Source: a virus. Taken from it: DNA of 34,520 nucleotides. Below are positions 1,302-18,121 of the stretch, piece by piece. Each line of letters starts with the position of its first letter. Positions within the stretch are counted from its first letter, which is position 1. The position numbers and the translations under genes were made by a program. The notes beneath the pieces are model-generated. The model was not told the origin of the DNA. It saw nothing but the letters and a program-made list of their open reading frames with translations, and did not search any database. Where the stretch lies: IMG/VR virus record IMGVR_UViG_3300036782_000036, positions 1 to 34,520 of that record; one strand, given 5' to 3'.

Positions 1302-1302
1302 C

Positions 1303-2099: not shown

Positions 2100-2165
2100 C
2101 CCGCCCACCACCGCCCCGGCCCGCAACGGTGCCGGGGCTCGCCCATACACAGAAGGGAGTGCCCG

Positions 2166-2504: not shown

Positions 2505-2505
2505 C

Positions 2506-2937: not shown

Positions 2938-2954
2938 CAGGAGACCGACACACC

Positions 2955-3368: not shown

Positions 3369-3694
3369 GGCTGCAGTACGACCTCGCCGCGGCCTTCCGC
3401 ATCCCTCCCTCCGAGGTCCTGGACCGCTTCACCGAGGAGGAGTTGATCCGCCTCATCGCGTACCAGAACCTGTACGGCCCGATCGGGCCATCACGCCTGG
3501 ACGTCGTGGCCGCCCGCCTGGGCATGGACGTGGCCGCCCCGCACATGAAGAAGGGCCAGCGGCCGAAGCTGAAGGACCACCTCGTCCAGTGGAGCCGCAA
3601 CGCTCGTCCTCGTAAGTCGGGCCGTGAACTGCTGGCCGCCGTCAAGGACATCCACGCCGGCCTCACCGGCAGGTCAGGAGGGGGGAAGAGATGA
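2955..3694 (+). CDS. Tail assembly chaperone, -1 frameshift fusion product (G-T-like; slip at 3344-3350)
   Basis: The -1 frame stays open from the slip site to 3694 (..GGFRRRPELRLQYDLAAAFRIPPSEVLDRFTEEELIRLIAYQNLYGP..). It ends in an ATGA overlap with the tape measure start. Confidence 0.75.
3344..3350 (+). promoter_or_regulatory. Programmed -1 ribosomal frameshift slippery site G GGT TTC
   Basis: An X XXY YYZ heptamer in the correct phase of the 2955 frame (codons GGT 3345-3347 and TTC 3348-3350). Confidence 0.75.
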
Positions 3695-5670: not shown

Positions 5671-5673
5671 CCC

Positions 5674-8391
5674 ATGGTTGCTCTGCCGCCGCCGGACCTG
5701 TTCGAGCTGTACTACAACGGCCAGTTCAACAACCGCACCTCCGACGTGCGGGCCTCGGCCGGGGTCACGATGTCGCGCGGAGTGTCGGCCGAGGGGACGC
5801 GGGCGGATCCCTCGGCCGCCGACATGCTGCTCAACAACCGGCACGGCGACTACTCCCGGCGCAACCCCATGAGCGCGCTGTACGGGAAGATCGGCCCGAA
5901 CACGCCGATGCGCTACTCCGTCGACGCGGGCTACCCCTACCTCCTGCTCCCCGGGGACACCTCCTCCGCGCTCACCACCCCCGACGCCGCGGTCCTCGGC
6001 GTGACCGACCTCGACATCCGCATCGAGGTCGCGCTCGACTCCTACACCACCGCCCAGGAGGCGGTCTCCCGGTTCCTGAACTCGGGCAACAACTGCTCCT
6101 GGTCGCTGCAGGTGGGCAACGGGCTGCAGCTGTCCTGGTACCCGGACGGAAGCTTCGCCAGCCAGAAGACCGCGGGCATCGGGGTGCAGCTGCCCGCCAT
6201 CCCCCGCCAGCGCATCGCCTTCCGTGTCGTCCTGGACGTCAACACCGGTGCCGGCGGCCACCTCGTCTCGTTCTACTGGGCGCCGTCGATCACCGCGACC
6301 ATGTGGAACCCACTCGGCACCGCCACCGCCGGCACCGGCACCACGACGGTGTTCGACGGGGCCGCCGGGCTGCAGCTCGGCACGAACACCGGCCTGGTCG
6401 GCACCGGGCTGAAGGGCCGCATCTACGCCTTCCAGCTGTGGGACGGTGCCACCGGCGTCCGCAAGGTCAACGTCGACTTCTCCACCGCGAAGGCCGGCGA
6501 CACCTCGTTCACCGACACCGGTGGCCTGGTGTGGACGAAGGCCGGCGCCGCCGCCCTGGCCAACCGGCACGTCCGTATGGCGGGCGAGGTCCCGGCCTGG
6601 ACGCCGCAACGCGATGCCTCCGGCGCCGACCGGACCGTGCCGATCACCCCGGCCGGGATAACCCGCCGCCTCGACGCGGGCACCAAGCCCCTCGAGTCCG
6701 CGCTGCTGCGCTACCTCCGCGCCGCGGGCCCGATCGAATGCTGGCCACTGATCGACGGAGCACAAGCCACCTCGGGCGCCCCGCTCGTCGGCACCGCGCC
6801 GGCCGTCGTCCTGCCGGGCAGCACCTACGTGTGGGCGGACGGCGAGCTCGCCGACTGGATCGAGCCGGTCATCCACCTCACAGGCGGCGGCCGGATCATC
6901 GCCCCGCTCCCGGCGCACGCTTCCGCGGCCACCGGCTGGTCGGTGGACTGGCCCTTCTCACAGCTGGACTCCCTCGTCACCTGCAGCGTGACCGAGGGCA
7001 GCGCCACCGGCCGGACATGGACGGTGTCCCTCGACCCCTCCACCAACAAGATCCAGCTCTTCACCTTCACCGCGGCCGGCGCCACCACCCTGCAAGGCGA
7101 GATCTCTCCCGCGAACGTCTTCAACGACGTTCCGCACGTGGTGCGGCTGACGACAGCGTCGAGCGGCGGCTCCGTCGGCTGGAGCCTGTACCTCGACGGC
7201 GTGCTCGCGGTGGCCGGGGCGGACACGCCCGCCGCCGTCCCGCTGCAGAACGTCGATGTCCTGGCCGGCCTGTCCGGATCCTTCAAGTCCATGGCGCTCG
7301 GCTACATCACCTACTGGGGCTCCTCGGCGCCCTCCGCGGCCGACTTCTACCGGGCCCTCACCGGGTTCCAGGGAGAGACCGCCGGCGCCCGCTTCCTGCG
7401 CCTGTGCACGGAGCAGGGGGTACCGGCCGCCCTGATGGGCACGGCCTCCGCCACCACCCCGCTCGGCGTCCAGAAGCGGGAGAAGTTCCTCGACGCGCTC
7501 GCTTCCCTCGCCCGTGCCGACGGCGGGTACGTCCTGGAGCAGCGCGACGACCGTGCCCTCGCCTTCCGGCCCCGCCAGACGCTTTACAACCAGCCCCCGG
7601 CGATCACCCTGGACTTCTCGACCGGGGTGATCAGCGAGCCGTTCCGGCCGCTGGACGACGAGAAGCTCAGCGAGAACGACGTCGCGGTCACCAGGGAGGG
7701 AGGCACGTTCGCGTCCGCCGTCCAGCTGACCGGGCCCCTGTCCGTCCAGGACCCCCCGGCCGGTATCGGCCGCTACGACGTCGCCCACACCCTCTCGCTC
7801 GCCGCCGACGCGCAGGCCCTGCAACAGGCCGCGTGGCGCCTGCACGTGGGCACTGTCGACGGCCTGCGCTATCCGCAGATCACCCTCGACCTCGGCAATC
7901 CCCGTGTGTGGCCGCTGATCCGGGCCGTCTACCTGGCCGACGTCGGCGACAAGATCCGGCTCACCGGCCTGCCGGACGACTACGGCCCCGACGACGTCGA
8001 CCTGATCATCCGCGGCTACAAGGAGACCGTCACCGAGAAGACGTGGCGGATCACGTTCACCTGCACCCCGGGCGCCCCCTACGACGTCCTGCAGCTGGGA
8101 GCCCCCGCCTACTCCCGGCTGGCCACTGCAGGTTCCCAGCTGGCCTCCGCCATCACCGCCACCGCAACGTCCCTGTCCGTCACCACCACGGGGACCACCC
8201 TGTGGACCACAGCGGCCGGCGACCGCCCGTTCGACATCGTCGTCGGCGGCGAGCGGATGACCGTCACCAACCTGACCGGCGCCACCTCGCCGCAGACGTT
8301 CACCGTCACCCGCTCCGTCAACGGCGTCGTCAAGTCCCACGTGGCCGGGACCGCGCTCCAGATCGCCCGGCCCGTCGTCTACGCCCTGTGA
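5674..8391 (+). CDS. Minor tail (tail-tip) protein, 905 aa, with two predicted ConA/LamG-like jelly-roll modules
   Basis: Immediately downstream of the tape measure gene. Segments ending in GRIYAFQLWDG (about nt 5970-6490) and GWSLYLDGVL...ALGYITYWG (about nt 6920-7325) look like LamG_3-type modules. High GC3 throughout. Confidence 0.75.
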   Translation: MVALPPPDLFELYYNGQFNNRTSDVRASAGVTMSRGVSAEGTRADPSAADMLLNNRHGDYSRRNPMSALYGKIGPNTPMRYSVDAGYPYLLLPGDTSSALTTPDAAVLGVTDLDIRIEVALDSYTTAQEAVSRFLNSGNNCSWSLQVGNGLQLSWYPDGSFASQKTAGIGVQLPAIPRQRIAFRVVLDVNTGAGGHLVSFYWAPSITATMWNPLGTATAGTGTTTVFDGAAGLQLGTNTGLVGTGLKGRIYAFQLWDGATGVRKVNVDFSTAKAGDTSFTDTGGLVWTKAGAAALANRHVRMAGEVPAWTPQRDASGADRTVPITPAGITRRLDAGTKPLESALLRYLRAAGPIECWPLIDGAQATSGAPLVGTAPAVVLPGSTYVWADGELADWIEPVIHLTGGGRIIAPLPAHASAATGWSVDWPFSQLDSLVTCSVTEGSATGRTWTVSLDPSTNKIQLFTFTAAGATTLQGEISPANVFNDVPHVVRLTTASSGGSVGWSLYLDGVLAVAGADTPAAVPLQNVDVLAGLSGSFKSMALGYITYWGSSAPSAADFYRALTGFQGETAGARFLRLCTEQGVPAALMGTASATTPLGVQKREKFLDALASLARADGGYVLEQRDDRALAFRPRQTLYNQPPAITLDFSTGVISEPFRPLDDEKLSENDVAVTREGGTFASAVQLTGPLSVQDPPAGIGRYDVAHTLSLAADAQALQQAAWRLHVGTVDGLRYPQITLDLGNPRVWPLIRAVYLADVGDKIRLTGLPDDYGPDDVDLIIRGYKETVTEKTWRITFTCTPGAPYDVLQLGAPAYSRLATAGSQLASAITATATSLSVTTTGTTLWTTAAGDRPFDIVVGGERMTVTNLTGATSPQTFTVTRSVNGVVKSHVAGTALQIARPVVYAL

Positions 8392-8400
8392 GGAGGCACC

Positions 8401-8886
8401 ATGCCCGACCCGATCGTCCTGTCCGGACAGATCATCACGCCCGACATCATCAACGGGCTGGTCCAGCCGCACGTGCAGGTCGTCGCCGGAGCCTTCGCGG
8501 TCCCGGCCGGCGCCAGCACATACACGCCCGTCGCGTGGGCCAGCACCCTGTCCGGCAACCACGCGCCCATGTGGTCGCTCGCGCAACCCACCCGGCTGAT
8601 CGCCCCGTCCGCCGGCGTCTACCTGATCCATGGCGGCGTCACCTGGCCCGGTGCCCTCGGCACCTCCGACGCCCGCGGTGAGATCCGCGCCAACGGCAGC
8701 GCCTCGCCCTCCCTCGGCACGAGGGTCGGCAGCCAGCGCGGCAGCGCCGGCAACATGCAGGCCGCGGCCAGCGGCACCGTCACCCTCACTGCCGGCGGCT
8801 ACGTCGAGCTCTACCTCAACACCCAGGCCGCGACCGCCATCACGGCCACCGTCACCCTCGGCATCACCCGCATCTCCGCCACCTGA
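8401..8886 (+). CDS. Minor tail protein, possible receptor-binding protein (161 aa, predicted beta-sandwich)
   Basis: ATG 3 nt after GAGGAGG. The pattern GVYLIHGGVTW.....DARGEIRANG......GTVTLTAGGYVELYLN resembles C1q/TNF-like tail fibre tips. The function is inferred from position. Confidence 0.55.
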   Translation: MPDPIVLSGQIITPDIINGLVQPHVQVVAGAFAVPAGASTYTPVAWASTLSGNHAPMWSLAQPTRLIAPSAGVYLIHGGVTWPGALGTSDARGEIRANGSASPSLGTRVGSQRGSAGNMQAAASGTVTLTAGGYVELYLNTQAATAITATVTLGITRISAT

Positions 8887-8901
8887 TCAGGAGGTTTCCG
8901 C

Positions 8902-9162
8902 ATGCCCGCCTACCCCAACTTCGACCCCGCCGGCGTCGCCTACGACCTCCACCTGTGGCACCCCGAGTGGGGATCGGTGCACGTCTCGGTCGGCACCCCC
9001 AGCTACCCCACGGGTGTCTTCAACAACGCCGGCGTGGACGCGATCATCCAGCAGCTCGCACAGGACCTCCTCGCGCCGATCGGCGGCGAGAAGGTCATCG
9101 AGGTCGTCCGTCTCCAGACCGAGTCCGTGAAGTGGACGCCCCCCGCGCCGCCCACCCCCTGA
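8902..9162 (+). CDS. Hypothetical protein (86 aa) between the tail and lysis modules
   Basis: ATG preceded by CAGGAGG (8888-8894). Very high GC3. No recognisable family. Confidence 0.65.
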   Translation: MPAYPNFDPAGVAYDLHLWHPEWGSVHVSVGTPSYPTGVFNNAGVDAIIQQLAQDLLAPIGGEKVIEVVRLQTESVKWTPPAPPTP

Positions 9163-9229
9163 CCTTGCCCGTACCCGCCCGCCCCGCGCCGTCCGGCCCG
9201 GGGCTTTGCCATATCTCAGGAGGCCCCCC

Positions 9230-10150
9230 ATGGCCGCACCACTGTCCGCGGACCGGCTGATCGCCGCGCTCCGCGCCGAAGGCGTCACCGTCATCGAGCA
9301 CCCCGGCTGGCGCACCCACAACCGCAACCACGTCGGCGACTGGGGACCGGTCGTCGGCGTGATGATCCACCACACCGTCAGCTCCGGCACCACCTCCTCG
9401 GTGGGGATGTGCTTCAACGGGTACGAGGGCCTGCCCGGGCCGCTGTGCCATGGCGTCATCGCGAAGGACGGCGTCGTGCACCTCGTCGGCAACGGCCGGG
9501 CCAACCACGCCGGCGGCGGCGACCCGTCCGTCCTCCAGGCCGTCATCACCGAGACGTACGGCGAGCAGCCCCCGGCGCCCCGCGTCCACCAGGGCAGCCC
9601 GGGCGCCGTCGACGGCAACTCCCGCTTCTACGGCTTCGAGTGCGTCAACCTCGGCGACGGCACCGACCCCTGGCCCACCGAGCAGCTGCTCGCGATCGAG
9701 CGCGTGGCCGCGGCCCTGTGCCGCGCGCACGGCTGGGGCGCCCGCTCCGTCATCGGCCACAAGGAGTGGTCCGACTGGAAGAACGACCCCCGCGGCTTCA
9801 CCATGCCGACGATGCGCGGCCGCGTGCAGGCCCGCCTCGACAAGGACCCTGCCAAGCCCGCCGAGCCGACGCCCACCCCGCCGAAGCAGCCGCCGGCCCT
9901 GGAGCCGTTCCCCGGCGCCTCGTTCTTCCGCGCGGGACGGAGCTCACCGGTCATCACCGCCATGGGCCGGCGCCTCGTCGCCGAAGGCTGCTCGGCGTAC
10001 ACCTCGGGGCCCGGGCCTCGGTGGACCGAGGCCGACCGCCTCAGCTACGCGAAGTGGCAGCGCAAGCTCGGATTCCGCGGCTCCGACGCCGACGGCATCC
10101 CCGGCCCCTCCTCCTGGACCGCCCTCAAGGTCCCCCGCTCCTCCCACTGA
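9230..10150 (+). CDS. Endolysin: N-acetylmuramoyl-L-alanine amidase (Amidase_2/PGRP) with a C-terminal peptidoglycan-binding domain
   Basis: ATG 6 nt after GGAGG; the ORF-track TTG start at 9206 is less likely. Catalytic-type motifs VMIHHTVS, NHAGGG and IGHKEWSDWKNDP. C-terminal PG_binding_1-like segment WQRKLGFRGSDADGIPGPSSWTAL. Confidence 0.9.
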   Translation: MAAPLSADRLIAALRAEGVTVIEHPGWRTHNRNHVGDWGPVVGVMIHHTVSSGTTSSVGMCFNGYEGLPGPLCHGVIAKDGVVHLVGNGRANHAGGGDPSVLQAVITETYGEQPPAPRVHQGSPGAVDGNSRFYGFECVNLGDGTDPWPTEQLLAIERVAAALCRAHGWGARSVIGHKEWSDWKNDPRGFTMPTMRGRVQARLDKDPAKPAEPTPTPPKQPPALEPFPGASFFRAGRSSPVITAMGRRLVAEGCSAYTSGPGPRWTEADRLSYAKWQRKLGFRGSDADGIPGPSSWTALKVPRSSH

Positions 10151-10161
10151 AAGGCGCCCCC

Positions 10162-10524
10162 ATGAACCTGCTCGCCAGCGTCCTCCGCACCGTCGTCCCG
10201 CTCCTGGCCGGATGGATCCTCACCGTCACCGGCGCTCTCGGCATCGAGGCCGACTCGACCGTGGTCGCCGGCGGCATCACCGCCGCCGTCACCCTCGCCT
10301 ACTACACCCTCCTCCGCCTGGCCGAAGAGCTCGCCTCCCGCATCGGCTGGGAGCCGGGCCGCCTCATCGCCGGCCTCTTCCTCGGCTGGGCCCGACCGCC
10401 CGCCTACGAGCAGCCGACCGCCACCGTCCCGGTTCGCGTCCACTTCGACAAGGAGGCCCTGCGCCTCGACGTTGGCGAGGCCCTGCGGCGCGCCGCCCAG
10501 GACGTGGAGAGGCGCCGCCCGTGA
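10162..10524 (+). CDS. Putative holin (120 aa, two predicted transmembrane helices, charged C-terminus)
   Basis: Directly after the endolysin gene. Hydrophobic segments VVPLLAGWILTVTGALGI and VVAGGITAAVTLAYYTLL. The long upstream extensions in the ORF track (9409..) overlap the endolysin out of frame and are spurious. Confidence 0.65.
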   Translation: MNLLASVLRTVVPLLAGWILTVTGALGIEADSTVVAGGITAAVTLAYYTLLRLAEELASRIGWEPGRLIAGLFLGWARPPAYEQPTATVPVRVHFDKEALRLDVGEALRRAAQDVERRRP

Positions 10525-10844
10525 CCGGCATCCCCGGCCTCGATATCGCGGCCGCCATCGCCGCCGCGATCGCCGCGCTCGGCGGCGCGCTCGCCCTGCT
10601 CTACCGCTGGGCCCGCGGCCTACGCCGAGGCCTCACCCGCCTCGGCGACTTCCTCGACGACTGGTTCGGCGTCGACGCGCGCCCGGGCGTCTCGGCGCGC
10701 CCCGGAGTCATGCAGCGGCTGTGCTCCCTGGAGGACGAAGTCGCCGGCATCAAGCACGAGCTCCACCCCAACTCAGGCAGCAGCCTCCGGGACGCGGTCG
10801 ACCGAGTCGACGCCCGCACCGCCCACCTCGACAAGGCCCCGTAG
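10521..10844 (+). CDS. Lysis-cassette membrane protein (107 aa, N-terminal TM helix plus helical C-terminal region)
   Basis: GTGA overlap with the holin stop. N-terminal segment IAAAIAAAIAALGGALALLY. The C-terminal part RLCSLEDEVAGIKHELHPNSGSSLRDAVDRVDART resembles actinophage lysis-region membrane proteins. Confidence 0.6.
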   Translation: MTGIPGLDIAAAIAAAIAALGGALALLYRWARGLRRGLTRLGDFLDDWFGVDARPGVSARPGVMQRLCSLEDEVAGIKHELHPNSGSSLRDAVDRVDARTAHLDKAP

Positions 10845-10851
10845 CCCACGA

Positions 10852-10879
10852 CGCCCCCTCTCGCTCGCGAGAGGGGGCG
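10852..10879 (+). terminator. Intrinsic terminator-like hairpin closing the late operon
   Basis: Perfect 12-bp stem CGCCCCCTCTCG/CGAGAGGGGGCG with a 4-nt loop, 8 nt after the stop at 10844. A T-containing tail (CATTCGTCTGTTCT) follows. Confidence 0.8.
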
Positions 10880-10961
10880 CATTCGTCTGTTCTGGGGCAC
10901 ACGACAAGGGCCTTGCCCCCTACTCTGATCGGTGTCGAGTCGTTCAGAGAGGGGCAAGGCC

Positions 10962-12215
10962 GTGTCGCTTCATGCTACCCCGGACCCGTACGCCAACCCG
11001 GCGGCTTTCGGGCAGAGAATGCAGATCCTCCGTGAGCGCCGCGGCATGACCCGCCAGGTGCTCGCCGGGCTCCTTGGGAAGTCGACCGACTGGGTGAAGT
11101 CCGTCGAGTCCGGCCGCATGCAGGCGCCCGGGATCGAGATGGTCTACCGGATCGCCGAGGCTCTGCGCGTGCGCGAGCTCTCCGACCTTACTGGCCACGG
11201 CGAGTACAAGGTGGACTTGTTCCTTGGCCCCGGGCATCCACGCCTGGCCGCTGTCAGGGCCGCCATCGAGGCGCGCCCTCTCGGCACGCCGGGAAGCGCA
11301 CCACCGAGGGCGGAGCACCTGGCCGCCAGGCTCGCTGTTGCCTGGAAGGCTCGGCACGAGGCCGCCAACCACCGAGAGAAGATCGGTGCGTTGTTGCCAG
11401 ACCTGATCCGAGACGCCCAGCTCTCCGTCAAGCACGCCGGGGAGCCCTCGGAGTGGCGCGCGGCGCAGGCCGTCCTCGCCGAGGTCTACTCGCTCGCGCA
11501 GTTCTTCCTCGCGTACCAGCCCGACCCGTCGCTCCTCTGGCGTGTTGCGGAGCGCGGCATGGTGGCCGCTGAGCAGTCCGACGACCCGCACGCGATCGGT
11601 GTCTCGTCCTGGCTCCTCGCCCAGGCCCACCGCGACACCGGCCCCTCCCACTACGACCAGGCCGACAGCATCACCAACCAGGCACTGGAGTACCTGACCC
11701 CGCTCCTGCCCGACGCCACGGACGACATCCTCGCCATCGCGGGTGCCCTGACCTTCGAGGCCGGCTACACCGCCGCCCGTAGGGGATCAACGGCCGCCGC
11801 CTGGCACCGGTGGGACACCGCCCGCGAGATGGCCGAGCGCCTGCCAGCCTCCTACTACCACCCCATCACGTCGTTCTCCCAGGCCATCATGGGCGCGCAC
11901 GCGGTCACAGTCGCCGTCGAGCTACACCACGGACCGGAATCGGTACGGCAGGCCGCCCAGGCGGATGTGGCGACCATCCCCTCCAGGCCCCGACGGGCCC
12001 GCCATCGGATCGAGGAGGCCCGCGGCTACCAGCTCGACGGTCAGCCCGACGTCGCCATCGCCACCCTGGAGAAAGCCCACCACGCGGCCCCGGAGACGAT
12101 CCGCTACAACGGCTACGCGCGGTCGATCATCTTGGAACAGACGGAGTCCAAGGTTGCGCACCGCCGCCGCCGGGCCGCCGAACTCGCCGTAGAGATGGGG
12201 CTCCTGGCAGCCTGA
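10962..12215 (+). CDS. XRE-family HTH regulator with a long all-helical (TPR-like) C-terminal domain (418 aa; 427 aa if GTG 10932 is used)
   Basis: The N-terminus FGQRMQILRERRGMTRQVLAGLLGKSTDWVKSVESGRMQAPGIEMVYRIAEAL is a classic HTH_3/31 motif. The remaining ~330 aa are Ala/Leu-rich helical repeats. GTG 10962 follows GAGAGGGG. Hairpin terminators flank the gene on both sides. Confidence 0.8.
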   Translation: MSLHATPDPYANPAAFGQRMQILRERRGMTRQVLAGLLGKSTDWVKSVESGRMQAPGIEMVYRIAEALRVRELSDLTGHGEYKVDLFLGPGHPRLAAVRAAIEARPLGTPGSAPPRAEHLAARLAVAWKARHEAANHREKIGALLPDLIRDAQLSVKHAGEPSEWRAAQAVLAEVYSLAQFFLAYQPDPSLLWRVAERGMVAAEQSDDPHAIGVSSWLLAQAHRDTGPSHYDQADSITNQALEYLTPLLPDATDDILAIAGALTFEAGYTAARRGSTAAAWHRWDTAREMAERLPASYYHPITSFSQAIMGAHAVTVAVELHHGPESVRQAAQADVATIPSRPRRARHRIEEARGYQLDGQPDVAIATLEKAHHAAPETIRYNGYARSIILEQTESKVAHRRRRAAELAVEMGLLAA

Positions 12216-12225
12216 CACAAGGGGG

Positions 12226-12242
12226 GGGGAGGATTCCTCCCC
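12226..12242 (+). terminator. Short hairpin after the XRE/helical-repeat gene
   Basis: GGGGAGG-ATT-CCTCCCC (7-bp stem, 3-nt loop), 11 nt after the stop. It is preceded by a G9 run. The U-tract is weak. Confidence 0.45.
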
Positions 12243-12308
12243 TCTACTCCGCGAGACCCCCCATAGCGTCGTGGTCAGGCAGAAGACGACCACGTCGGGG
12301 GTGTCCTC

Positions 12309-12575
12309 GTGTTGACGATCAAGGTCTATCGGGTGGGGAGCGACGGCACCACCGTGCCTGTCGCTCCGGCCTATAAGGTGCAGCCGGCCACGGAGCCTTC
12401 GGCCACGACCGCGTACCCGCCCTGCGGCTGCCCGAGACACCGCCGTCGCGAGTGGTGCGACTTCCACAAGGGTCCGTCGCAGAGCGCCGTTCCGGTCGAT
12501 GAGCACCGCCTCGCCTGCGCGCCTTGCCGCGAGCAGCGGAGCCTCGCCCCGCGCGCTGAGGCGGGGCAGCGGTGA
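12309..12575 (+). CDS. Hypothetical Cys/His-rich small protein (88 aa)
   Basis: GTG start. High GC3. Motifs CGCPRH, WCDFH and CAPC. Its stop overlaps the next start (GTGA). Confidence 0.55.
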   Translation: MLTIKVYRVGSDGTTVPVAPAYKVQPATEPSATTAYPPCGCPRHRRREWCDFHKGPSQSAVPVDEHRLACAPCREQRSLAPRAEAGQR

Positions 12576-12769
12576 CAACGACCAAGGAGTGGGTGATCCC
12601 GCCGTACGCCAACCTCACCTGGGAGCAGCACGCCGGGCGGAACTGCGTGTTCTGCGACCGCCCGCTCCATCAGGGGGCCCGGGAAGTCGGCCGGGTCAGG
12701 CGTGACTACGGCGTCCCGCTCCGGGACGTGCCGGTCTACGCGGGCCCCTGCTGCCTCGGCACCCCGTGA
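12572..12769 (+). CDS. Hypothetical Cys-containing small protein (65 aa)
   Basis: GTGA coupling at both ends. Motifs CVFC and PCC. High GC3. Confidence 0.55.
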   Translation: MTTTKEWVIPPYANLTWEQHAGRNCVFCDRPLHQGAREVGRVRRDYGVPLRDVPVYAGPCCLGTP

Positions 12770-12849
12770 GCGAGTGGCAGCGGCAAGCCCTCTACTGCCT
12801 GATCGTCCTCGGCATACTCGCCGTCCTCGTCGCCGGCATCACCACCTGA
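12766..12849 (+). CDS. 27-aa single-pass membrane micro-protein (not in the ORF track)
   Basis: GTG 12766 overlaps TGA 12767-12769. Hand translation gives VSEWQRQALYCLIVLGILAVLVAGITT then a stop at 12847-12849. It is the third member of a translationally coupled chain. Confidence 0.45.
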   Translation: MSEWQRQALYCLIVLGILAVLVAGITT

Positions 12850-12913
12850 CGGCCCTCGATGTCCCCTCTGGTCCATAGGATGGGCGGGCCGCCACGAGAG
12901 GAAATGATCACAA

Positions 12914-13321
12914 ATGCGCCCCCAGCGATTCACCGACTACGTCCTCGACCTCGCCAAGAACGCGCCCGGCATCGTCCGGGTGCAGACCCTCGCCGAGGCC
13001 GGCGACACCAAGCGGCCGTTCGGCCTGGCCATCACGACGTCGAGCGGCGAGAACCGGTGGCAGTTCATGGGGCAGCTCCCGGACGGAGCGAAGCACGAAG
13101 GCTTCACCGACGAGCCGGTGACCGGCACCCCTGCGCCGGCCATGGGCGACCCGGCTACCGCCGGCTCCCCCGAGGCGTGGCTCGCGGCCGTCCTCGCCGG
13201 CGCCGAGTGCCCGGAGATCTCCGCCATTGGCCGGTGGTCCACCAGCTCCGAGGGGGCCGCGCAGCGTGGCATCACTGTCGACTTCCACGACGGCTCGCGG
13301 ATCTTCGCGCGCCAGCTCTAG
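12914..13321 (+). CDS. Hypothetical protein (135 aa)
   Basis: ATG preceded by GAGAGGAAA (12897-12905). Good GC3. No recognised family. Confidence 0.65.
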   Translation: MRPQRFTDYVLDLAKNAPGIVRVQTLAEAGDTKRPFGLAITTSSGENRWQFMGQLPDGAKHEGFTDEPVTGTPAPAMGDPATAGSPEAWLAAVLAGAECPEISAIGRWSTSSEGAAQRGITVDFHDGSRIFARQL

Positions 13322-13395: not shown

Positions 13396-13542
13396 ATGCG
13401 ATTCGACCCCGGCATGTGCGAGGGGAACTGCCCGGTCTGCGGCGCCGGCGTGGGCAGCTCGCCCGGCACCCCGACGACGATGCACCAGCGCGCCGGGACC
13501 GGCACGGAGACCTGCCCGGGGAGCGGCCAGCCCGCCCTGTAA
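13396..13542 (+). CDS. 48-aa Cys-rich (zinc-ribbon-like) micro-protein
   Basis: ATG 8 nt after CAGGAGGAA (13381-13389). Sequence MRFDPGMCEGNCPVCGAGVGSSPGTPTTMHQRAGTGTETCPGSGQPAL. A strong hairpin follows. The ORF-track entry 12859..13542 is a spurious upstream extension. Confidence 0.55.
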   Translation: MRFDPGMCEGNCPVCGAGVGSSPGTPTTMHQRAGTGTETCPGSGQPAL

Positions 13543-13552
13543 CCGCGTAACG

Positions 13553-13583
13553 AGCCCCGGCCGGACCATCCACGGCCGGGGCT
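13553..13583. terminator. Bidirectional terminator hairpin between convergent genes
   Basis: 11-bp perfect stem AGCCCCGGCCG/CGGCCGGGGCT with a 9-nt loop. It lies between the + strand stop at 13542 and the - strand stop at 13582. Confidence 0.7.
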
Positions 13584-13824
13584 ACTCGAACAGCTGGCCT
13601 GGCGGGATGCCTATCGCGTCCGCCAGGAGCAGGACTGTGTCGACCGTGGGCGCGGCTCGTCCCGCCTCGATTTCTTGGACTGTCGCGCGCCCGAGCCCGC
13701 TCCGCTCGCAAACGGCCTGCTGGGTCAAGTTGGCGTAGAGCCTTGCGTCCCGCACCCGTGCGCCGAATACGGCCCGGCGGGCGAGGACCCAGTCGGGCGG
13801 CGGGGCTGATTTCGGGCGGACCAC
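13582..13824 (-). CDS. Small XRE/Cro-CI-type HTH regulator (80 aa)
   Basis: RVRDARLYANLTQQAVCERSGLGRATVQEIEAGRAAPTVDTVLLLADAIGIPPGQLF is a canonical HTH_3 domain. The GTG start lacks a clear RBS, so the true start may be internal or the mRNA may be leaderless. Confidence 0.75.
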   Translation of the reverse strand: MVRPKSAPPPDWVLARRAVFGARVRDARLYANLTQQAVCERSGLGRATVQEIEAGRAAPTVDTVLLLADAIGIPPGQLFE

Positions 13825-13932
13825 AGGGCAACGTTCGTCGCTTCTTGATCATTTGTATGCACGGCTAGCCAGGCATTTTTTGATCTTGAACGGCGCGCGT
13901 CACCCTGGGCCGCCCGATCCGGGCGGCTCCGG

Positions 13933-14910
13933 CTAGGGCACGTCCCGGTCCCTGCTCGTCGCCCACCACACCATCAACTGATTCGTGGAACGCAAGCCGA
14001 GATCATCCCGGAGCGCCTCAAGGTCGCGTCCCACCTCCCGGCCGCTCACGCCGAGTTGGCCGGCGACGACCGCCTGAGTATCTCCCTTGGCGAGCCCCCG
14101 CAGGATCATCCGCTGTTGCGGCGTCGTGACCGCGTCCGCCAGGGCGGCCCGAGCCTCCTGCCACGGGGTGGCCCTGTCCCAGTACCCCTGAAATACAGCG
14201 AGAGCGAATGCAGTGCAGGCGATGTCTTTGATGTGCCAGCCCGCATGGGCCTCGCTGCTCAGCACATGGTTGTCCACGAAGAGATTCGTCCCCGCCATGA
14301 CCATGCGGGGCGGAAGCTCTTGACCGACACGGACCTCGCCGCCCTCCGCGAGCACGACCTCCACGTACCTCGCCGTCGGCGCGTGCGCGAGGGCGGCAGA
14401 GGGGTACAGGGACCGTACGGGGATGCCTCGCACCAGGAGAGCGCGAGCTCTGCGGAGGCCCTCCTCCAGGACGGCCGGGTCTCGCTCAGTCGGCACGCCA
14501 GGCTGGACGGTGTAGAGGCCGCCCTCCGCGTCTGTCGCAAGCACGTGCTTGATGTGTTCGTTCATCAGCGCCTTGCTGTGCACGAACTCGCTTGCGGGGC
14601 CGCCATAGAGACGTGCGGGGTCATAGTGCCGCGCCAGACGTTCGAGGGCCGACACCCGCCCCATCTGATCAAGAGTGCGGGCCAGGGCCGCATGATGCTC
14701 CGCGAGGAGCTGTTGCGCGACGACGCGGGGATCCAGGGCGACAAGCTCGTCGCCGATTTGGCGGACGAGGCCGAGCTGAACGAGCCGGGTCACGGAGGCA
14801 GACGCCTCGACCGGTCGACCCTCCGCGATGTCGCGGTAGACGCGCTCCTCGTCGGGAGTGAGGGCAAGATCTTCAACGATTTCCATACCGCGCCGCCTGT
14901 TCTTGTCCAC
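13933..14910 (-). CDS. Transcriptional regulator: N-terminal winged-helix (TrmB-like), central unknown domain, C-terminal LuxR/GerE HTH (325 aa)
   Basis: The C-terminus TTPQQRMILRGLAKGDTQAVVAGQLGVSGREVGRDLEALRDDLGLRSTNQLMVWW is a LuxR-type HTH. The N-terminus LTPDEERVYRDIAEGRPVEASASVTRLVQLGLVRQ looks like a wHTH. An ATG at 14886 is an alternative start. Confidence 0.8.
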   Translation of the reverse strand: MDKNRRRGMEIVEDLALTPDEERVYRDIAEGRPVEASASVTRLVQLGLVRQIGDELVALDPRVVAQQLLAEHHAALARTLDQMGRVSALERLARHYDPARLYGGPASEFVHSKALMNEHIKHVLATDAEGGLYTVQPGVPTERDPAVLEEGLRRARALLVRGIPVRSLYPSAALAHAPTARYVEVVLAEGGEVRVGQELPPRMVMAGTNLFVDNHVLSSEAHAGWHIKDIACTAFALAVFQGYWDRATPWQEARAALADAVTTPQQRMILRGLAKGDTQAVVAGQLGVSGREVGRDLEALRDDLGLRSTNQLMVWWATSRDRDVP

Positions 14911-15037
14911 TTTCAGACGTGTCCCAAATTTCTCAGGAAAGCCCCTGGCATACGCCTAATGCACATGTCAGCGTAGGGGTCACGTCAAGAGTACGGATGC
15001 ATGTTCTATTTGTGATCGACACTCGGAGGGATGACCT

Positions 15038-15208
15038 ATGGGACAGAGCGTGACCAGAACCGTGGCGGCCGTGCTGGTTTCGGTTGCCGCCGTGATCGGT
15101 ATCGGGGCCACCGCCCACGCGGAGGACCCCGGATGGGGCGGGCCGGCGCCGACCGTCTCCACCCCCACGCCGACGCCCACCGCCGCGAACGATCCCGGCT
15201 GGGGGTAA
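15038..15208 (+). CDS. Secreted small peptide precursor (56 aa): Sec signal peptide plus a 28-aa mature part with two DPGWG motifs (not in the ORF track)
   Basis: ATG 7 nt after GGAGGG (15025-15030). Hand translation: MGQSVTRTVAAVLVSVAAVIGIGATAHA|EDPGWGGPAPTVSTPTPTPTAANDPGWG, then TAA 15206-15208. About 49 of 56 codons end in G/C by my count. The overlapping 192-aa ORF 15031..15609 is Arg-rich nonsense in this stretch. Confidence 0.6.
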   Translation: MGQSVTRTVAAVLVSVAAVIGIGATAHAEDPGWGGPAPTVSTPTPTPTAANDPGWG

Positions 15209-15345
15209 GGCTCCGGCACGTCTTGGTCACTCGTCCGTCAACCCCACATGGCGGATGCGCTCTGATATCGGCCCACGCGCACCATGAGAACGCGCAACGG
15301 GGGAACCCCTTGATCCGGCCCCGACGGCCGGGATGGGTGGGAGAA

Positions 15346-15609
15346 ATGACGGACGTAGTCCGTGTAGTAGTGCTTGGAGTACTGGCCCTCGGTGTCGTCG
15401 CCATGGCCTTCACGTTCAGGTCTCTGCGGAGCCAGGTCGACGACTTGCGCGCTGAGGTCGCATGCCTCCGAATCGAACGACTCCTCGGAGAGCCCGTGGC
15501 CGCGCCGGCGGACCGTGCACGGCCGCGGCGTCCCGAGCTCGGCATCATCGTTGGCGCCTTCGTCGGCGCCATTACTGCCACGGCCGCCACGTGGCTTCTG
15601 TGGGGGTGA
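15346..15609 (+). CDS. Small membrane protein (87 aa) with TM helices at both termini and a central amphipathic/coiled segment
   Basis: ATG after GGGTGGGAGAA. Segments VVRVVVLGVLALGVVAMAF and LGIIVGAFVGAITATAATWLLW flank SLRSQVDDLRAEVACLRIERLL. It contains many A/T-ending codons (gta, gga, cga, gaa, att, act), which is atypical for this genome. Confidence 0.65.
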   Translation: MTDVVRVVVLGVLALGVVAMAFTFRSLRSQVDDLRAEVACLRIERLLGEPVAAPADRARPRRPELGIIVGAFVGAITATAATWLLWG

Positions 15610-15621
15610 AGCATCACCCCC

Positions 15622-15671
15622 GATGCCCCGGCAGTCACGGCCGTGCCCCACGGCCCGGCTGCCGGGGCATC
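15622..15671. terminator. Compound bidirectional terminator between the membrane-protein gene and the integrase gene
   Basis: 13-bp perfect outer stem GATGCCCCGGCAG/CTGCCGGGGCATC encloses a 7-bp inner hairpin GGCCGTG-CCC-CACGGCC. It lies between the convergent stops at 15609 and 15687. Confidence 0.75.
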
Positions 15672-15686
15672 GGCGCATCACGCCCC

Positions 15687-16976
15687 CTAGGCCGAGGCAA
15701 CAGCCCGGAGGGAGGGGCGGCCGCCCTGGAGCGTCGTCTCGATCGTTTCCATGGCATCGTCGTCCGCTTCCGGCAGGAGGTGCCCGTACAGATCCGACGT
15801 GGTCTTGATCGACTCGTGCCCGAGGCGCCGCTGTACGTAGGTGAGCGAGTGGCCGGCCGAGATGAGCGCGGCCGCGTGCGAGTGCCGTAGGTCGTGCGGG
15901 GTCGGGCGCTTGTAGACCGGGAGCATCCCGTCCTTCTTCGCCTTGCGGATCGCACGCTGCCACCGGTCATAGAAGGTGCTGTAGTGGAGCCGCTGCCCCT
16001 GGTCTCCCGTGAAGAACAGGCCGTCGTCGTCGAGGCCCTCGACCCTGCGTAGTTCGTCCAGCGCCTCGATCACGGACGTACTGACCCGGATGGTGCGCCG
16101 CCCCCGCTTGGACTTGGGCATGCCGACGTAGTAGCCGCCCTCGCCGTCCTTCTTCCATGCCCGATGGACCTGGAGCCGTATGCGAGCGGGGTCGGAGTCG
16201 AGGAGGCAGTACGGCGCAAGCGCCGTGAGCTCGCTGTACCGCAGCCCTGTCCCGTACTTGACCTCCACCATCAGCTGGTCCTGGCGGATGGTGAGCCGGT
16301 CCCGGATGGCCGCCACTTCTTGCGGGGTGAGGAACTCGATGTCCTCGTCCTCGGGAGTAGCGCCGCCGTCGTCGCGGCGGGGCAGGTTGGTCCGCTCGCA
16401 TGGGTTGCGAGCACGGAGCGGCGGCTCGGCCTGGACAGCCTCGTTGAGGATCGAGCTAAGGAGGCCGTGGAGGTTCCTGATGGTCTTGGGGGACATTGGC
16501 CTGTTGCGGGGGCCACGCCCCTTCCGCACCTTGGTCTGCTCCAAGACACGGACCCATGCACGGATGGTGTCACTCGAAAAGTGTTTGACGCTGCGGACGT
16601 CGCATTCGCCGAAGGTCGGGAAGATGTACATCTCCAACTCGCGGTGGCACGCCTTGCGGTAGTGCTCCTCGATGCCGGTTCGCAGGTCGATGGTCCGGGT
16701 GGCGTAGGCGCGGAATCGGTACCGCGCATCGTCGATGGCGTCGGCCTCCTCGGGGACGATGTACCCCTTCCCCTTGATCCATCCCGCAGGCCACCGCTGG
16801 CCAGCCTCGTCGACGGCCTGCTTGAAGATGTCAGCCGCGGCTTTGCCTTCGTCGTCGCCGTCGAACTTCTCCGTCGCCCACTGGGGGTCACCAGGTCGGC
16901 GGTTTGCGTCTCGCCACTTCACCTGGTAACTGGTGATCTCTCCATCGCGGCTCTTCCGCGGGTGCACGCTCGCCAT
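15687..16976 (-). CDS. int: Tyrosine-type integrase (site-specific recombinase, 429 aa)
   Basis: Catalytic-domain motifs TGLRYSEL, HDLRHSHAAALISAG and LGHESIKTTSDLYGHL (R...HxxR...Y). An N-terminal SAM-like/arm-binding region is present. It lies adjacent to the tRNA-like attP core. Confidence 0.92.
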   Translation of the reverse strand: MASVHPRKSRDGEITSYQVKWRDANRRPGDPQWATEKFDGDDEGKAAADIFKQAVDEAGQRWPAGWIKGKGYIVPEEADAIDDARYRFRAYATRTIDLRTGIEEHYRKACHRELEMYIFPTFGECDVRSVKHFSSDTIRAWVRVLEQTKVRKGRGPRNRPMSPKTIRNLHGLLSSILNEAVQAEPPLRARNPCERTNLPRRDDGGATPEDEDIEFLTPQEVAAIRDRLTIRQDQLMVEVKYGTGLRYSELTALAPYCLLDSDPARIRLQVHRAWKKDGEGGYYVGMPKSKRGRRTIRVSTSVIEALDELRRVEGLDDDGLFFTGDQGQRLHYSTFYDRWQRAIRKAKKDGMLPVYKRPTPHDLRHSHAAALISAGHSLTYVQRRLGHESIKTTSDLYGHLLPEADDDAMETIETTLQGGRPSLRAVASA

Positions 16977-17074
16977 GGCGTGACACTAGACCCTGTGTTC
17001 CCGTCGCGTTCCCACGGGGCAGTGAATTTGAGGCGAGGCACCCCCATCCTTGCAGGTGGAGGGCCTGTCGCCGC

Positions 17075-17099
17075 TGGTGCCCGGAACCGGACTCGAACC
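17075..17099 (-). other. tRNA 3'-end mimic (T-loop, acceptor 3' strand, discriminator, CCA); putative crossover core
   Basis: The minus strand reads GGTTCGAGTCCGGTTCCGGGCACCA. No complete cloverleaf can be folded upstream, so this is a fragment and not a tRNA gene. Confidence 0.7.
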
Positions 17100-17151
17100 T
17101 GTTCCGACTAGGCGCCTGACCTGCGATAACGCTGTGAGCTCTACGTTTCTT

Positions 17152-17180
17152 ACCGCCGGGACCCGTTTGGGCCCGGCGGT
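17152..17180. terminator. Hairpin downstream of the repressor-like gene, inside the attP arm
   Basis: 9-bp stem ACCGCCGGG/CCCGGCGGT with an 11-nt loop. TCCCGTTTC follows on the + strand. Confidence 0.4.
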
Positions 17181-17297
17181 TCCCGTTTCAGGCCGCCTCT
17201 GTGTTCCCGTGGGAACACAGGCGGGAACACCGCAGGTCGAGCAGGGGTGAAGCGCGCCGAGCGATGACATGGCGGGAACTCGTCGCCGAGGCCTCAA

Positions 17298-17708
17298 TCA
17301 GGCCGTGCGTCGTGCCTCGGGCGGGATGCGGTCGCCGAGTCGGCGGAGAACTTCCGCCTGCACTCGCACGGGGAGGCTGTCCAGGATTGTGAGGATCGCC
17401 GCGGCCTGCGGATCGATCGGCTCATCCTGCGGGGGCGCCGCCGGGATTGGCGCGGCCGTTTCCACGGTCGGCTCACCGCCGGCCATCACGTCATCCGCAC
17501 TGCGCACGGTCCAGCCGAGGGCCCGTTCCAGCTTCCGATACGTAACGGGGCTGACGCGCACCCCCTTGCGGATCTTGGCGAGGGTCTCGATGGAAAAGTC
17601 TGCGCGCTCGGCGACCTCGGTGAACTGCATCCCTTGTGCGGCGATGTAGTTCTCCACGGTGTCGCCGAGTCTGGCGAGCTCCTCGGCTCCGTACCCAGCC
17701 TCCGTCAT
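17298..17708 (-). CDS. CI-like repressor candidate (HTH, 136 aa), probably on a leaderless mRNA
   Basis: HTH segment MQFTEVAERADFSIETLAKIRKGVRVSPVTYRKLERAL. It is divergent from a Cro-like gene across an operator-rich region. There is no SD. A TAGCTT -10-like hexamer ends 6 nt before the ATG. Confidence 0.75.
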   Translation of the reverse strand: MTEAGYGAEELARLGDTVENYIAAQGMQFTEVAERADFSIETLAKIRKGVRVSPVTYRKLERALGWTVRSADDVMAGGEPTVETAAPIPAAPPQDEPIDPQAAAILTILDSLPVRVQAEVLRRLGDRIPPEARRTA

Positions 17709-17902
17709 GCGGCCAAGCTACAGCTTGGCTCCAACTTGCTCCAATGCCCTCCCAGCCACATGACCGTTTTTCACTGCACCATCACGTTTCGATGATCAGA
17801 TTCCGCAACGTGGTGCCACGTTGGAACGCCCACCCTCCAACCTTGGACAAGATCGCTCCAATTTCCGCTTGACCAACTCCAACGTTGGAGTATGTTGGAG
17901 TC
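17709..17902. promoter_or_regulatory. Lysis/lysogeny switch region: back-to-back promoters and repeated CTCCAA/TTGGAG operator half-sites
   Basis: CTCCAA at 17729, 17739, 17835, 17856 and 17877. TTGGA(G/A/C) at 17821, 17843, 17885 and 17895. A 16-bp perfect palindrome ACTCCAACGTTGGAGT lies at 17876-17891. An inverted repeat CAACGTGG-TG-CCACGTTG lies at 17806-17823. GC content is visibly reduced. Confidence 0.75.
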
Positions 17903-18121
17903 ATGTTGAACCGCACGGTTGACGGCCGAAAGGTCCGCGACCTGCGGCGACGACGCGGCCTGTCGGTCGTCGCCGTCGCTGAGGCCGCAGGCTGCTCGAA
18001 GTGGATGATCTACAAGATCGAAACGGGGGCGAACCAGCCCTCGCCCCGCGTCTACGCCGGAATGCGAGACGTCCTTAAGGCGACTGAGTCCCAGCTCCTG
18101 CGCGGCAGGAGGGCTCGGTAA
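17903..18121 (+). CDS. Cro-like HTH regulator (72 aa)
   Basis: HTH segment VRDLRRRRGLSVVAVAEAAGCSKWMIYKIETGANQPS. TTGACC (17869-17874), a 16-nt spacer and TATGTT (17891-17896) sit just upstream, placing the transcription start at about the ATG. The ORF-track TTG start at 17885 is less likely. Confidence 0.75.
   Translation: MLNRTVDGRKVRDLRRRRGLSVVAVAEAAGCSKWMIYKIETGANQPSPRVYAGMRDVLKATESQLLRGRRAR

Follow-up and report, generated by a model that had tools for sequence, protein, structure and literature searches.

The subject of this work is a cassette of four small genes in the IMG/VR virus record IMGVR_UViG_3300036782_000036, whose 34,520 bases (71% GC) were analysed over their full length and are called the window here. 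The window is the complete, non-integrated genome of a temperate siphophage akin to Streptomyces phage Chymera (KU958700). Chymera has been isolated, and its host, S. venezuelae ATCC 10712, is tractable. The minus strand of the cassette encodes a regulator and an 80-residue XRE-type helix-turn-helix (HTH) protein, while the plus strand encodes a putative secreted pro-peptide of 56 residues and a small membrane protein; the two gene pairs diverge from a common spacer, and strong hairpins flank the whole. A 3.7-kb segment around the cassette aligns end to end with Chymera at 78.6% identity. The equivalent of the cassette there is gp28-gp31, adjoining the integrase gene, and the order of Chymera gp28-gp35 (XRE protein, regulator, peptide, membrane protein, integrase, attP, immunity repressor, cro-like gene, excise) is the same in the window. 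This order places the cassette between the tail, lysis and accessory genes on one side and the integrase on the other, with a classical repressor/cro switch beyond attP. The four genes and the 137-nucleotide spacer between the peptide and membrane-protein genes lie where a preliminary description of this DNA had put them, and all four open reading frames (ORFs) have plausible ribosome-binding sites. That description had given the regulator 325 residues (13933-14910). Such an ORF exists, but its most likely start is the ATG at 14886, which yields 317 residues, because the upstream GTG at 14910 is GAG in Chymera and in the related locus L005 and the ATG is conserved; the source gene call (P0001) also has 317 residues. 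With this start the divergent spacer spans 151 nucleotides.

We considered the product of the gene divergent from the regulator. It reads MGQSVTRTVAAVLVSVAAVIGIGATAHA / EDPGWG GPAPTVSTPTPTPTAAN DPGWG, with a Pro/Thr-rich linker between the two DPGWG copies, and its gene has a third-position GC content (GC3) of 0.86. Both copies are kept in Chymera gp30, in which the linker has diverged by substitutions and indels. The signal peptides of this and related precursors were judged by heuristic only: a basic N-terminus is followed by a hydrophobic run of 15-28 residues, and the same plan is found in all 26 tabulated precursors and in seven further loci. Every Trp residue of the 26 tabulated precursors falls inside a DxxW core. 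The linker is rich in Pro, Thr and Ala and variable in length and sequence, and the five-residue core D-x-x-W-(G/D) is the only conserved part. This build is the one usually seen in precursors of peptide pheromones. Searches of Pfam, NCBIfam and PHROG returned no family for the peptide. A bacteriocin or a ribosomally synthesized and post-translationally modified peptide (RiPP) precursor was rejected on the grounds that the fetched flanks hold no modification, immunity or export gene and that nothing beyond the pentapeptide is conserved. A lipoprotein was likewise discarded, a lipobox-like LxAC being limited to the clade with the core DSAWG (loci L026, L028 and L036), where it lies within the hydrophobic region of the precursor.

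Homologues of the regulator were surveyed wherever their DNA context could be obtained, that is, in genome contigs, in IMG/VR viral contigs, in PLSDB plasmids (by tblastn) and among distant representatives from an exhaustive profile search. At 34 of the 37 informative loci, meaning those with upstream DNA present, we found a divergent ORF with a signal-peptide-like N-terminus and one to four copies of D-x-x-W-(G/D). These loci belong to phages, plasmids and chromosome-like contigs (Chymera, genome contigs L003-L016, viral contigs L017-L025, plasmids including pSAM1, and distant profile matches), and their regulators range from about 25% to 100% identity. The last core copy forms the C-terminus of the precursor in 31 of the 34. 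Comparison by tblastn across the loci showed that the regulator-peptide pair alone is universal and that every other neighbouring gene changes. As a control, all six-frame ORFs of at least 40 residues were collected from 315 kb of DNA comprising the surveyed loci, the window and the whole Chymera genome (n = 2,689). Twenty-nine of them end in D..W[GD], and each of the 29 is the ORF divergent from a regulator gene; none of the other 2,660 does so. The regulator family itself comprises 1,379 clusters at 50% identity with E < 1e-10 in the profile search, and a DxxW peptide was present at all seven of the distant representatives that could be inspected, down to E = 4e-28, one of them in a chromosome-like context. 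The linkage of regulator homologues to a divergent small secreted-peptide ORF, which the preliminary description had proposed as a check, thus proved strongly positive; the D-x-x-W-(G/D) core had not been noted there.

The cores seen were DPGWG, DPGWD, DLGWG, DIGWG, DVGWG, DTAWG, DSAWG, DTTWG and DTGWG, together with DTNWG/DSDWG, DTHWD/DTNWD, DPNWD, DIQW(G) and DTSW. The first eight of these and DIQW track regulator clades, as pherotypes would. We regard the regulator-peptide pattern as statistically unambiguous, widespread and apparently undescribed, and consider the chances evenly balanced that the cassette represents, in a phage, a two-gene module for peptide signalling that is widespread on mobile elements of Streptomycetaceae. 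Two precursor genes had been overlooked: the DxxW peptide ORF at L039 2142-2336 (minus strand) is uncalled in the gene table of its record, and that at L024 2084-2270 (minus strand) is the tail of a long spurious ORF and does not stand separately in a mechanical ORF listing. Neighbourhood surveys that rely on annotation only may therefore undercount the family.

Table 1. Features of the cassette and its surroundings, in window coordinates.
Feature	Position	Strand	Remarks
Left boundary hairpin	13553-13583	both	Perfect 11-bp arms 13553-13563 / 13573-13583; between the convergent upstream ORF (end 13542) and the XRE stop codon
XRE/Cro-C1-type HTH protein, 80 residues (Chymera gp28)	13582-13824	minus	HTH_31 50.1 bits (cut-off 27); HTH_3 47.9 bits (cut-off 23)
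Putative promoter/operator region of the XRE gene	13848-13890	minus	GATCA boxes flank the imperfect palindrome ATGCCTGGCTAGCCGTGCAT at 13857-13876
Small hairpin	13904-13932	minus	Right after the regulator stop codon; -23.5 kcal/mol, z = -3.0
Regulator, candidate cytoplasmic receptor (Chymera gp29)	13933-14886	minus	317 residues; alternative GTG start at 14910 gives 325 residues
Regulator domains (predicted)			N-terminal TrmB-like winged helix; long coiled-coil helix; PLD-like domain, residues ~94-240; LuxR/GerE HTH, residues ~256-315
Divergent promoter/operator spacer (putative)	14887-15037	both	Conserved blocks TGGCATACGCC 14946-14956, CACATGTCAGCGTAGGGGTCACGTCAAG 14962-14989, GTTCTATTTGTGATCGA 15003-15019
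Ribosome-binding site of the peptide gene, GGAGGG	15025-15030	plus	
Pro-peptide, 56 residues (Chymera gp30)	15038-15208	plus	Signal-peptide-like N-terminus, residues 1-28, ending AHA
Core copy 1, DPGWG	15125-15139	plus	
Core copy 2, DPGWG	15191-15205	plus	Last five residues before the stop codon
Conserved block in the 137-nucleotide peptide/membrane-protein spacer	15223-15254	plus	TTGGTC.CTCG.CCGTCAACCCCACATG.CGG
Small membrane protein, 87 residues (Chymera gp31)	15346-15609	plus	Transmembrane helix, amphipathic helix LRxQVDxLRAE, basic linker, C-terminal transmembrane helix
Right boundary hairpin	15620-15673	both	Between the convergent membrane-protein and integrase genes
Tyrosine integrase (context, outside the module)	15687-16976	minus	Pfam Phage_integrase 82 bits; 91% identical to Chymera integrase
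attP (probable)	about 16977-17297		Next to the integrase gene, in the integrase-repressor gap
Immunity repressor	17298-17708	minus	Corresponds within the Chymera gp32-gp35 order
cro-like gene	17885-18121	plus	

The regulator was modelled with AlphaFold2 (AF2) from an alignment of 13 homologues (mean predicted local distance difference test score, pLDDT, 84.5). In Foldseek searches against the PDB, the N-terminal 260 residues of the model matched archaeal TrmBL2 (5bpd, E = 2e-10, about 260 columns); the TrmBL2 matches 5bpd, 5bpi and 5box had E values of 2e-10 to 2e-8 and are structural only. Searched in the same way, the middle domain matched the phospholipase D-like (PLD) fold of Nuc (1byr, E = 9e-6) and the sugar-binding domain of TrmB (2f5t, E = 7e-5). 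The order of secondary structures in the model agrees with the TrmB plan of winged helix, coiled-coil dimerisation helix and PLD-like domain. According to the model and the family profile, the C-terminus is a four-helix LuxR-type HTH; the profile matched LuxR-type HTHs in the PDB (ChrA, ComA, DevR, NarL) at E = 9e-5 to 1e-3. Pfam GerE (PF00196) gave 15.9 bits on the regulator of the window, below the cut-off of 23.5 (residues 263-314 of the 325-residue form), and three relatives lie above that cut-off (P0036 with 41 bits, P0150 with 29.4 bits and P0017 with 28.6 bits). The catalytic HKD motif of PLD enzymes, HxK(x)4D, is missing, since no invariant His or Lys was found among 26 family members, and K220 of the regulator varies between K, Q and T even in close relatives. 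Among the invariant residues are R135, R146, Y161, W217 and W242.

Several other assignments were sought without success. Neither Pfam TrmB (PF01978) nor Regulator_TrmB (PF11495) matched the regulator at E <= 0.1, and the C-terminal beta-barrel sugar-binding subdomain of TrmB is not present, the LuxR HTH standing in its place. Pfam detected no tetratricopeptide repeat (TPR) domain, and the AF2 model matched TrmBL2, PLD and TrmB folds in Foldseek, not TPR proteins. Pfam Autoind_bind, the domain that binds acyl-homoserine lactone autoinducers, gave no match either; TraR, SdiA, LasR and CviR are weak structural matches driven by the HTH (TM-scores of about 0.17-0.19). No family of Pfam, NCBIfam or PHROG covers the middle domain or the whole architecture, and a search of BFVD retrieved matches to the PLD domain and the HTH and no full-length viral structural analogue. 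The model thus depicts a soluble one-component regulator composed of a TrmB-type winged HTH, a coiled coil, a non-catalytic PLD-like effector domain and a LuxR HTH. DNA-binding domains are predicted at both ends, and a soluble protein that combines them with a ligand-binding-like fold devoid of the PLD catalytic motif resembles a one-component sensor. Structure prediction and Foldseek agree with the earlier view of a protein that is LuxR/TrmB-like and not TPR, with a winged HTH, an unlabelled middle part and a LuxR HTH. For that middle part, which had been singled out as the candidate ligand-binding module, they returned an effector-type PLD-like/TrmB fold, but one whose characterised ligands are sugars only, a finding that touches a condition which the same description had set against its own reading, namely that the middle domain has a known enzyme or small-molecule fold with no relation to peptide sensing.

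These results bring up the possibility that the ligand of the regulator is a small molecule, either a sugar as in TrmB or some other metabolite, and that the DxxWG peptide is a mere product acting elsewhere, for instance at the cell envelope, in nearby hyphae or through a membrane sensor of the host. The nearest solved folds, TrmBL2 and the TrmB sugar-binding domain, are in line with this, as is the lack of an importer in the cassette, and tight divergent linkage would also be expected of a dedicated local regulator and its target gene. On the other hand, the beta-barrel subdomain that completes the sugar site of TrmB is replaced by the LuxR HTH. Small-molecule sensing would also leave unexplained why one regulator family stays with one peptide family across phages, plasmids and chromosomes while the other neighbours change, and why just a five-residue core of the product is conserved. 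We consider this explanation unlikely, though it deserves to be kept in view.

The divergent spacer is the putative control region of the module, and its low GC content and conserved blocks speak for the signalling reading. The stretch 14911-15037 has a GC content of 50.4% against 71% for the window, and 0.05% of all 127-nucleotide windows are as low. The preliminary description had counted it among the least GC-rich DNA; it is in fact the lowest of the window, the repressor/cro spacer being second. The blocks listed in Table 1 are conserved in six close loci, and the boxes TCGAAC, ACATGTG and TGCCAG are retained in clades whose regulators are only about 40% identical. Distant clades with regulators of about 40% identity carry the palindrome GTGCCAGAATCGGCAC at the position of TGCCAG. 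The ATGCA near-repeat that had been pointed out in the spacer does exist but is not conserved in Chymera or in the other close loci, and we dismissed it as an operator for that reason. The spacer 15-mer and the palindrome that were tested occur nowhere else in the window. The spacer 11-mer has no other exact match there, and its 15 matches with at most two mismatches, compared with 10.6 expected, correspond to chance.

Two further stretches of non-coding DNA are conserved. Upstream of the XRE gene, 13848-13890 is almost invariant between the window and Chymera, in contrast to the flanking coding DNA with about 75-85% identity. The palindrome within it has no second copy in the window, where chance would give 0 matches. 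More distant lineages retain the GATCA boxes but differ in the central palindrome, which is GCAGCTAnnTAGCTGC, TTACGGTCAACCGTAA or TTTCCC..GGGAAA. Constant GATCA boxes around an exchanged palindrome are the pattern that a lineage-specific operator of the XRE gene would be predicted to leave. The idea of one protein binding both the XRE promoter and the divergent spacer was abandoned, as the palindrome has no consistent match in the spacer across 13 loci. The second stretch, 15223-15254, is nearly invariant between the window and Chymera, whereas the rest of the 137-nucleotide spacer has substitutions and indels. This spacer showed neither a significant fold (z = +0.3) nor an Rfam match, and the block could be a second promoter/operator or an RNA element.

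The two remaining genes of the cassette are less constant companions. The XRE protein matches transcription regulators in PHROG and is 87.5% identical to Chymera gp28. Most phage-type loci have a homologue of it following the regulator gene; no plasmid locus does. The membrane protein is 81% identical to Chymera gp31 and belongs to no Pfam, NCBIfam or PHROG family. About a dozen phage loci have it 3' of the peptide gene, with shorter one-transmembrane homologues of 51-52 residues at this position in distant phage loci; the LRxQVDxLRAE helix is common to all forms. L003 and the plasmid loci lack it, and at L004, L008 and L015 an unrelated soluble protein of 63-79 residues occupies its slot (L004 4374-4592, L008 230-469 and L015 3400-3591, all on the minus strand; N-terminal motif M.V.L....LP.G.L.W.D). 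Within the fetched flanks of the plasmid loci examined, no homologue of the XRE or the membrane protein was detected. From this distribution, both proteins appear to be frequent phage-specific add-ons and not core parts of the module, the membrane protein being a candidate for its output or effector in phages. The preliminary description had likened the cassette to aimR-aimP-aimX. The analogy is firm only for the receptor-peptide pair, because neither the membrane protein nor the XRE protein is a universal partner and the aimX-like part is variable or absent. The plasmid-type loci of the DSAWG clade (L026, L028 and L036) have the module beside an operon for an extracytoplasmic function (ECF)-type sigma-70 factor and a convergent gene of about 70 codons.

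GC3 is 0.74-0.86 in the cassette genes (13582-15609) and 0.94-0.97 in the structural genes (38-13321), which suggests a different origin or a different expression regime. Such a lower GC3, a location between tail/lysis genes and integrase and boundaries formed by hairpins are typical of accessory cassettes. Together with the frequent occurrence of the membrane protein among phage loci, they would suit a prophage 'moron' that acts on the envelope in lysogenic conversion or superinfection exclusion, with the peptide and the membrane protein working at the cell surface and the regulators maintaining expression in the lysogen. We hold this to be improbable. Plasmids and chromosome-like contexts that have no membrane protein carry the pair as well, and in phages the membrane protein can be replaced or absent. 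Only the pentapeptide is conserved in the mature part, which is otherwise linker of low complexity and does not look like a folded exclusion protein. No PHROG with a known role in exclusion was matched by any of the four cassette proteins, a defence-system library not having been searched.

Starting from the strictly conserved gene pair, the architecture and core of the precursor, the regulator fold and the blocks of conserved non-coding DNA, we infer export, processing and re-import of the peptide, its direct binding to the regulator, the sign of regulation and the biological output along the following lines. Divergent promoters in the 151-bp low-GC spacer would drive the regulator gene leftwards and the pro-peptide and membrane-protein genes rightwards. 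The 56-residue pro-peptide would be exported, its signal peptide being cut off after AHA, and extracellular proteases would trim the Pro/Thr-rich linker to release short peptides with the DPGWG core, two per precursor and one of them C-terminal. The peptide would become more concentrated as phage-carrying or phage-infected cells grow denser, and it would be taken up again, most plausibly via the oligopeptide permease of the host. Once inside, it would bind the PLD-like effector domain of the dimeric regulator and alter the occupancy of the conserved operator blocks in the spacer. In the phage the outputs would be the membrane protein and possibly the XRE protein with its own lineage-specific operator, and through them prophage behaviour, that is, lysogenisation, induction or superinfection, may be influenced.

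A number of findings weigh against such a peptide-sensing module and its proposed role. The core lies inside the precursor, and not at its C-terminus, in the two loci that are farthest removed. The divergent ORF is absent at three distant homologues, at one of which an insertion sequence (IS) element has entered the upstream DNA. A core variant and a regulator clade are inherited together, so that their correlation is no proof of co-evolution. Only five regulator columns (116, 124, 150, 264 and 304) co-vary with core position 2 (Pro versus Leu/Ile/Val), in an analysis that is underpowered and confounded by phylogeny. As the spacer blocks do not recur in the window, the regulator, and with it the module, may act only locally, on itself. 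The phage has its own classical repressor/cro switch across attP from the cassette, and any link of the module to the decision between lysis and lysogeny would therefore be indirect. The cassette encodes neither a transporter nor a processing protease. Finally, sugars, not peptides, are the known ligands of the PLD-like/TrmB effector fold.

A cytoplasmic regulator made beside the precursor, with no importer present, could also point to regulation coupled to secretion. In that case the unprocessed precursor would bind the regulator in the cytoplasm as an anti-regulator and be removed by export, in analogy to FlgM, and the system would report export capacity and not density. Several identical cores per precursor, and a core placed at the very end behind a linker open to proteases, are more in keeping with released peptides than with an intact anti-regulator, and such a mechanism is without precedent in this regulator family. 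We therefore judge it very unlikely. The interpretation given in the preliminary description is partly supported, and the comparison of loci considerably strengthens its central element, the pairing of a receptor-like regulator with a secreted peptide.

The module was compared with known communication systems. With arbitrium (AimR-AimP-AimX) of Bacillus SPbeta-group phages it shares a temperate phage as carrier and the gene for a cytoplasmic DNA-binding receptor beside that for a secreted pro-peptide (PMC12360287 and general knowledge). A conserved short C-terminal core, core variants between related phages and a small downstream gene as candidate output are further likenesses. The arbitrium trait of a short secreted pro-peptide beside its receptor, with a C-terminal core, has its counterpart here in the putative secreted peptide, with no sequence homology to AimP. 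AimR, however, consists of an HTH and TPRs, whereas the present regulator has a TrmB-like winged HTH, a PLD-like domain and a LuxR HTH; the genes are co-directional in arbitrium and divergent here; and a single xxxxGA hexapeptide stands against D-x-x-W-G, often in two to four copies. The hosts are Actinomycetota, plasmids and chromosomes carry the module as well, and it is known so far from sequence alone. The PrgX/PrgQ (iCF10/cCF10) and TraA/iAD1 systems of Enterococcus conjugative plasmids also reside on mobile elements, and there, too, the regulator and precursor genes diverge from a shared control region and the active peptide comes from the C-terminal end of a short precursor. The plasmid members of the present family (pSAM1 and others) have the same layout. 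PrgX is nevertheless an RRNPP-type HTH protein with a helical repeat domain and differs from the TrmB/PLD-like fold, and the two have no sequence similarity. The module resembles arbitrium in its logic and comes closer to the divergent PrgX/PrgQ loci in its gene layout.

More generally, RRNPP(A) receptors (Rap, Rgg, NprR, PlcR, PrgX, AimR) likewise pair a pro-peptide with a cognate intracellular receptor on chromosomes, plasmids and phages (PMC10075063). They are described for Bacillota, and their TPR-type peptide-binding domain was not found here. As the TPR receptor domain proved absent on testing, the module falls outside the arbitrium, PrgX/PrgQ and RRNPP families. The TrmB family (TrmB, TrmBL1, TrmBL2) has in common with the regulator the N-terminal winged helix, the long dimerisation helix and the PLD-like effector domain, but the regulator lacks the TrmB sequence signature and the C-terminal sugar subdomain and has gained a LuxR/GerE HTH. 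To our knowledge, TrmB proteins are not paired with secreted peptides. VqmA-Phage of phage VP882, which responds to 3,5-dimethylpyrazin-2-ol (DPO), is another phage-encoded one-component receptor with a C-terminal LuxR-type HTH that links a diffusible signal to prophage behaviour (PMC12360287), and the VqmA structure 7dwm is a weak Foldseek match to the regulator via the HTH (E = 1.7e-3). VqmA differs in having a PAS domain and a small molecule made by the host, as opposed to a PLD-like sensor and a peptide candidate encoded by the element.

Actinomycetota typically signal with small molecules made by enzymes, and peptide systems are regarded as a trait of Bacillota (PMC10075063, a 2023 survey). 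In a 2025 review arbitrium is the only example of a phage-encoded signal (PMC12360287), and neither phage peptide communication nor peptide quorum sensing through cytoplasmic receptors is known outside Firmicutes or with receptors other than RRNPP/TPR proteins (PMC10075063; PMC12360287). Full-text literature searches covering the peptide cores, arbitrium-like Streptomyces systems, TrmB-LuxR regulators and Streptomyces peptide quorum sensing yielded no description of the module. Across the family we tentatively propose, with slightly less confidence than we place in the reading of the cassette itself, the first genetically encoded peptide communication in Actinomycetota: a non-RRNPP receptor of TrmB-like, PLD-like and LuxR-HTH parts would be paired with precursors of D-x-x-W-G pentapeptides in different pherotypes, on Streptomyces temperate phages, plasmids and chromosomes, allowing the elements to sense their own density. 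If this is true, mobile elements would have evolved peptide communication independently, on the basis of an unrelated receptor fold; a new class of signal would be added for Streptomyces, its phages and its plasmids; and the PLD-like/TrmB effector domain would acquire a peptide-binding role that is new for the fold. A simple search rule would follow, namely a divergent small ORF ending in DxxWG, sometimes missed by annotators. With Chymera isolated and S. venezuelae ATCC 10712 as a tractable host, the hypothesis is directly testable.

The hairpins that bound the cassette were found at, or within a few bases of, the positions given earlier (13553-13583, and 15620-15673 in place of 15622-15671). 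The left one folds with -27.2 and -26.8 kcal/mol on the two strands (z = -4.6 and -3.2; none of 200 shuffles folds as well), and its stem is retained in Chymera with one G-U change. The right one, which has perfect 15-bp arms (15620-15634 / 15659-15673) and an inner 7-bp stem, reaches -51.6 and -52.6 kcal/mol (z = -7.4 and -5.0) and is partially conserved in Chymera. Folding thus bears out the strong hairpins of a cassette that had been described as terminator-bounded, but a consensus terminator scan called neither of them and both are without a T-run, so that 'terminator' is an interpretive label. Tail-less terminators are common in high-GC actinomycetes, and the two hairpins are likely bidirectional terminators without a U-tract. 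The small hairpin reported 3' of the regulator is also present. Its stem is kept in Chymera and L005 with altered sequence, and it is likely a terminator or attenuator that separates the regulator and XRE transcripts. Consensus scans for sigma-70 promoters and terminators found no match within the cassette, and neither known RNA families nor tRNAs were detected in or around it.

Another candidate receptor is encoded 1.7 kb from the cassette. This 427-residue protein (10932-12215, plus strand; phrog_5823, equivalent to Chymera gp24) begins with an XRE-type HTH (HTH_31, 41.8 bits), continues for about 340 residues that match no family, and has the size and layout of an RRNPP-type receptor. A single very weak TPR-like hint (E = 0.5) was obtained, and homologues lie within a few kb of the module in many phage loci and not in plasmid loci. 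One could suppose that this protein, perhaps RRNPP-like, is the true peptide receptor and that the TrmB/LuxR protein is only the transcription factor of the cassette. The DNA fetched around plasmid loci that keep the regulator-peptide pair, however, holds no homologue; the gene is not adjacent to the peptide gene, and the TPR content is only a weak hint. We regard this as the least probable of the explanations considered. A 66%-identical homologue of the 427-residue protein is present together with a regulator, a precursor with the core DLGWG and an XRE gene on L010 (JBAZOQ010000017.1), a 5.8-kb contig from a metagenome-assembled genome (MAG) labelled 'Candidatus Paceibacterota'; it is almost certainly a mis-binned fragment of a Streptomyces phage.

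Beyond the cassette, the integrase-repressor gap that probably holds attP contains TGGTGCCCGGAACCGGACTCGAACC at 17076-17099, the reverse complement of a tRNA 3' end (T-arm plus CCA), which is also found in Chymera. Since ARAGORN detected no complete tRNA here, a host tRNA gene is the probable integration target of the phage. The repressor/cro spacer (17709-17884), second-lowest in GC content in the window, is densely packed with CTCCAA/TTGGAG repeats, which are probably the operators of the main switch, and the sole sigma-70-like promoter match in a scan of 12-18 kb lies at 17869-17896, in the same region. On the other side of the cassette, a small Cys-rich ORF of 48 residues (13396-13542, plus strand; MRFDPGMCEGNCPVCGAG...), equivalent to Chymera gp27, contains two CxxC-like pairs and ends just before the left hairpin.

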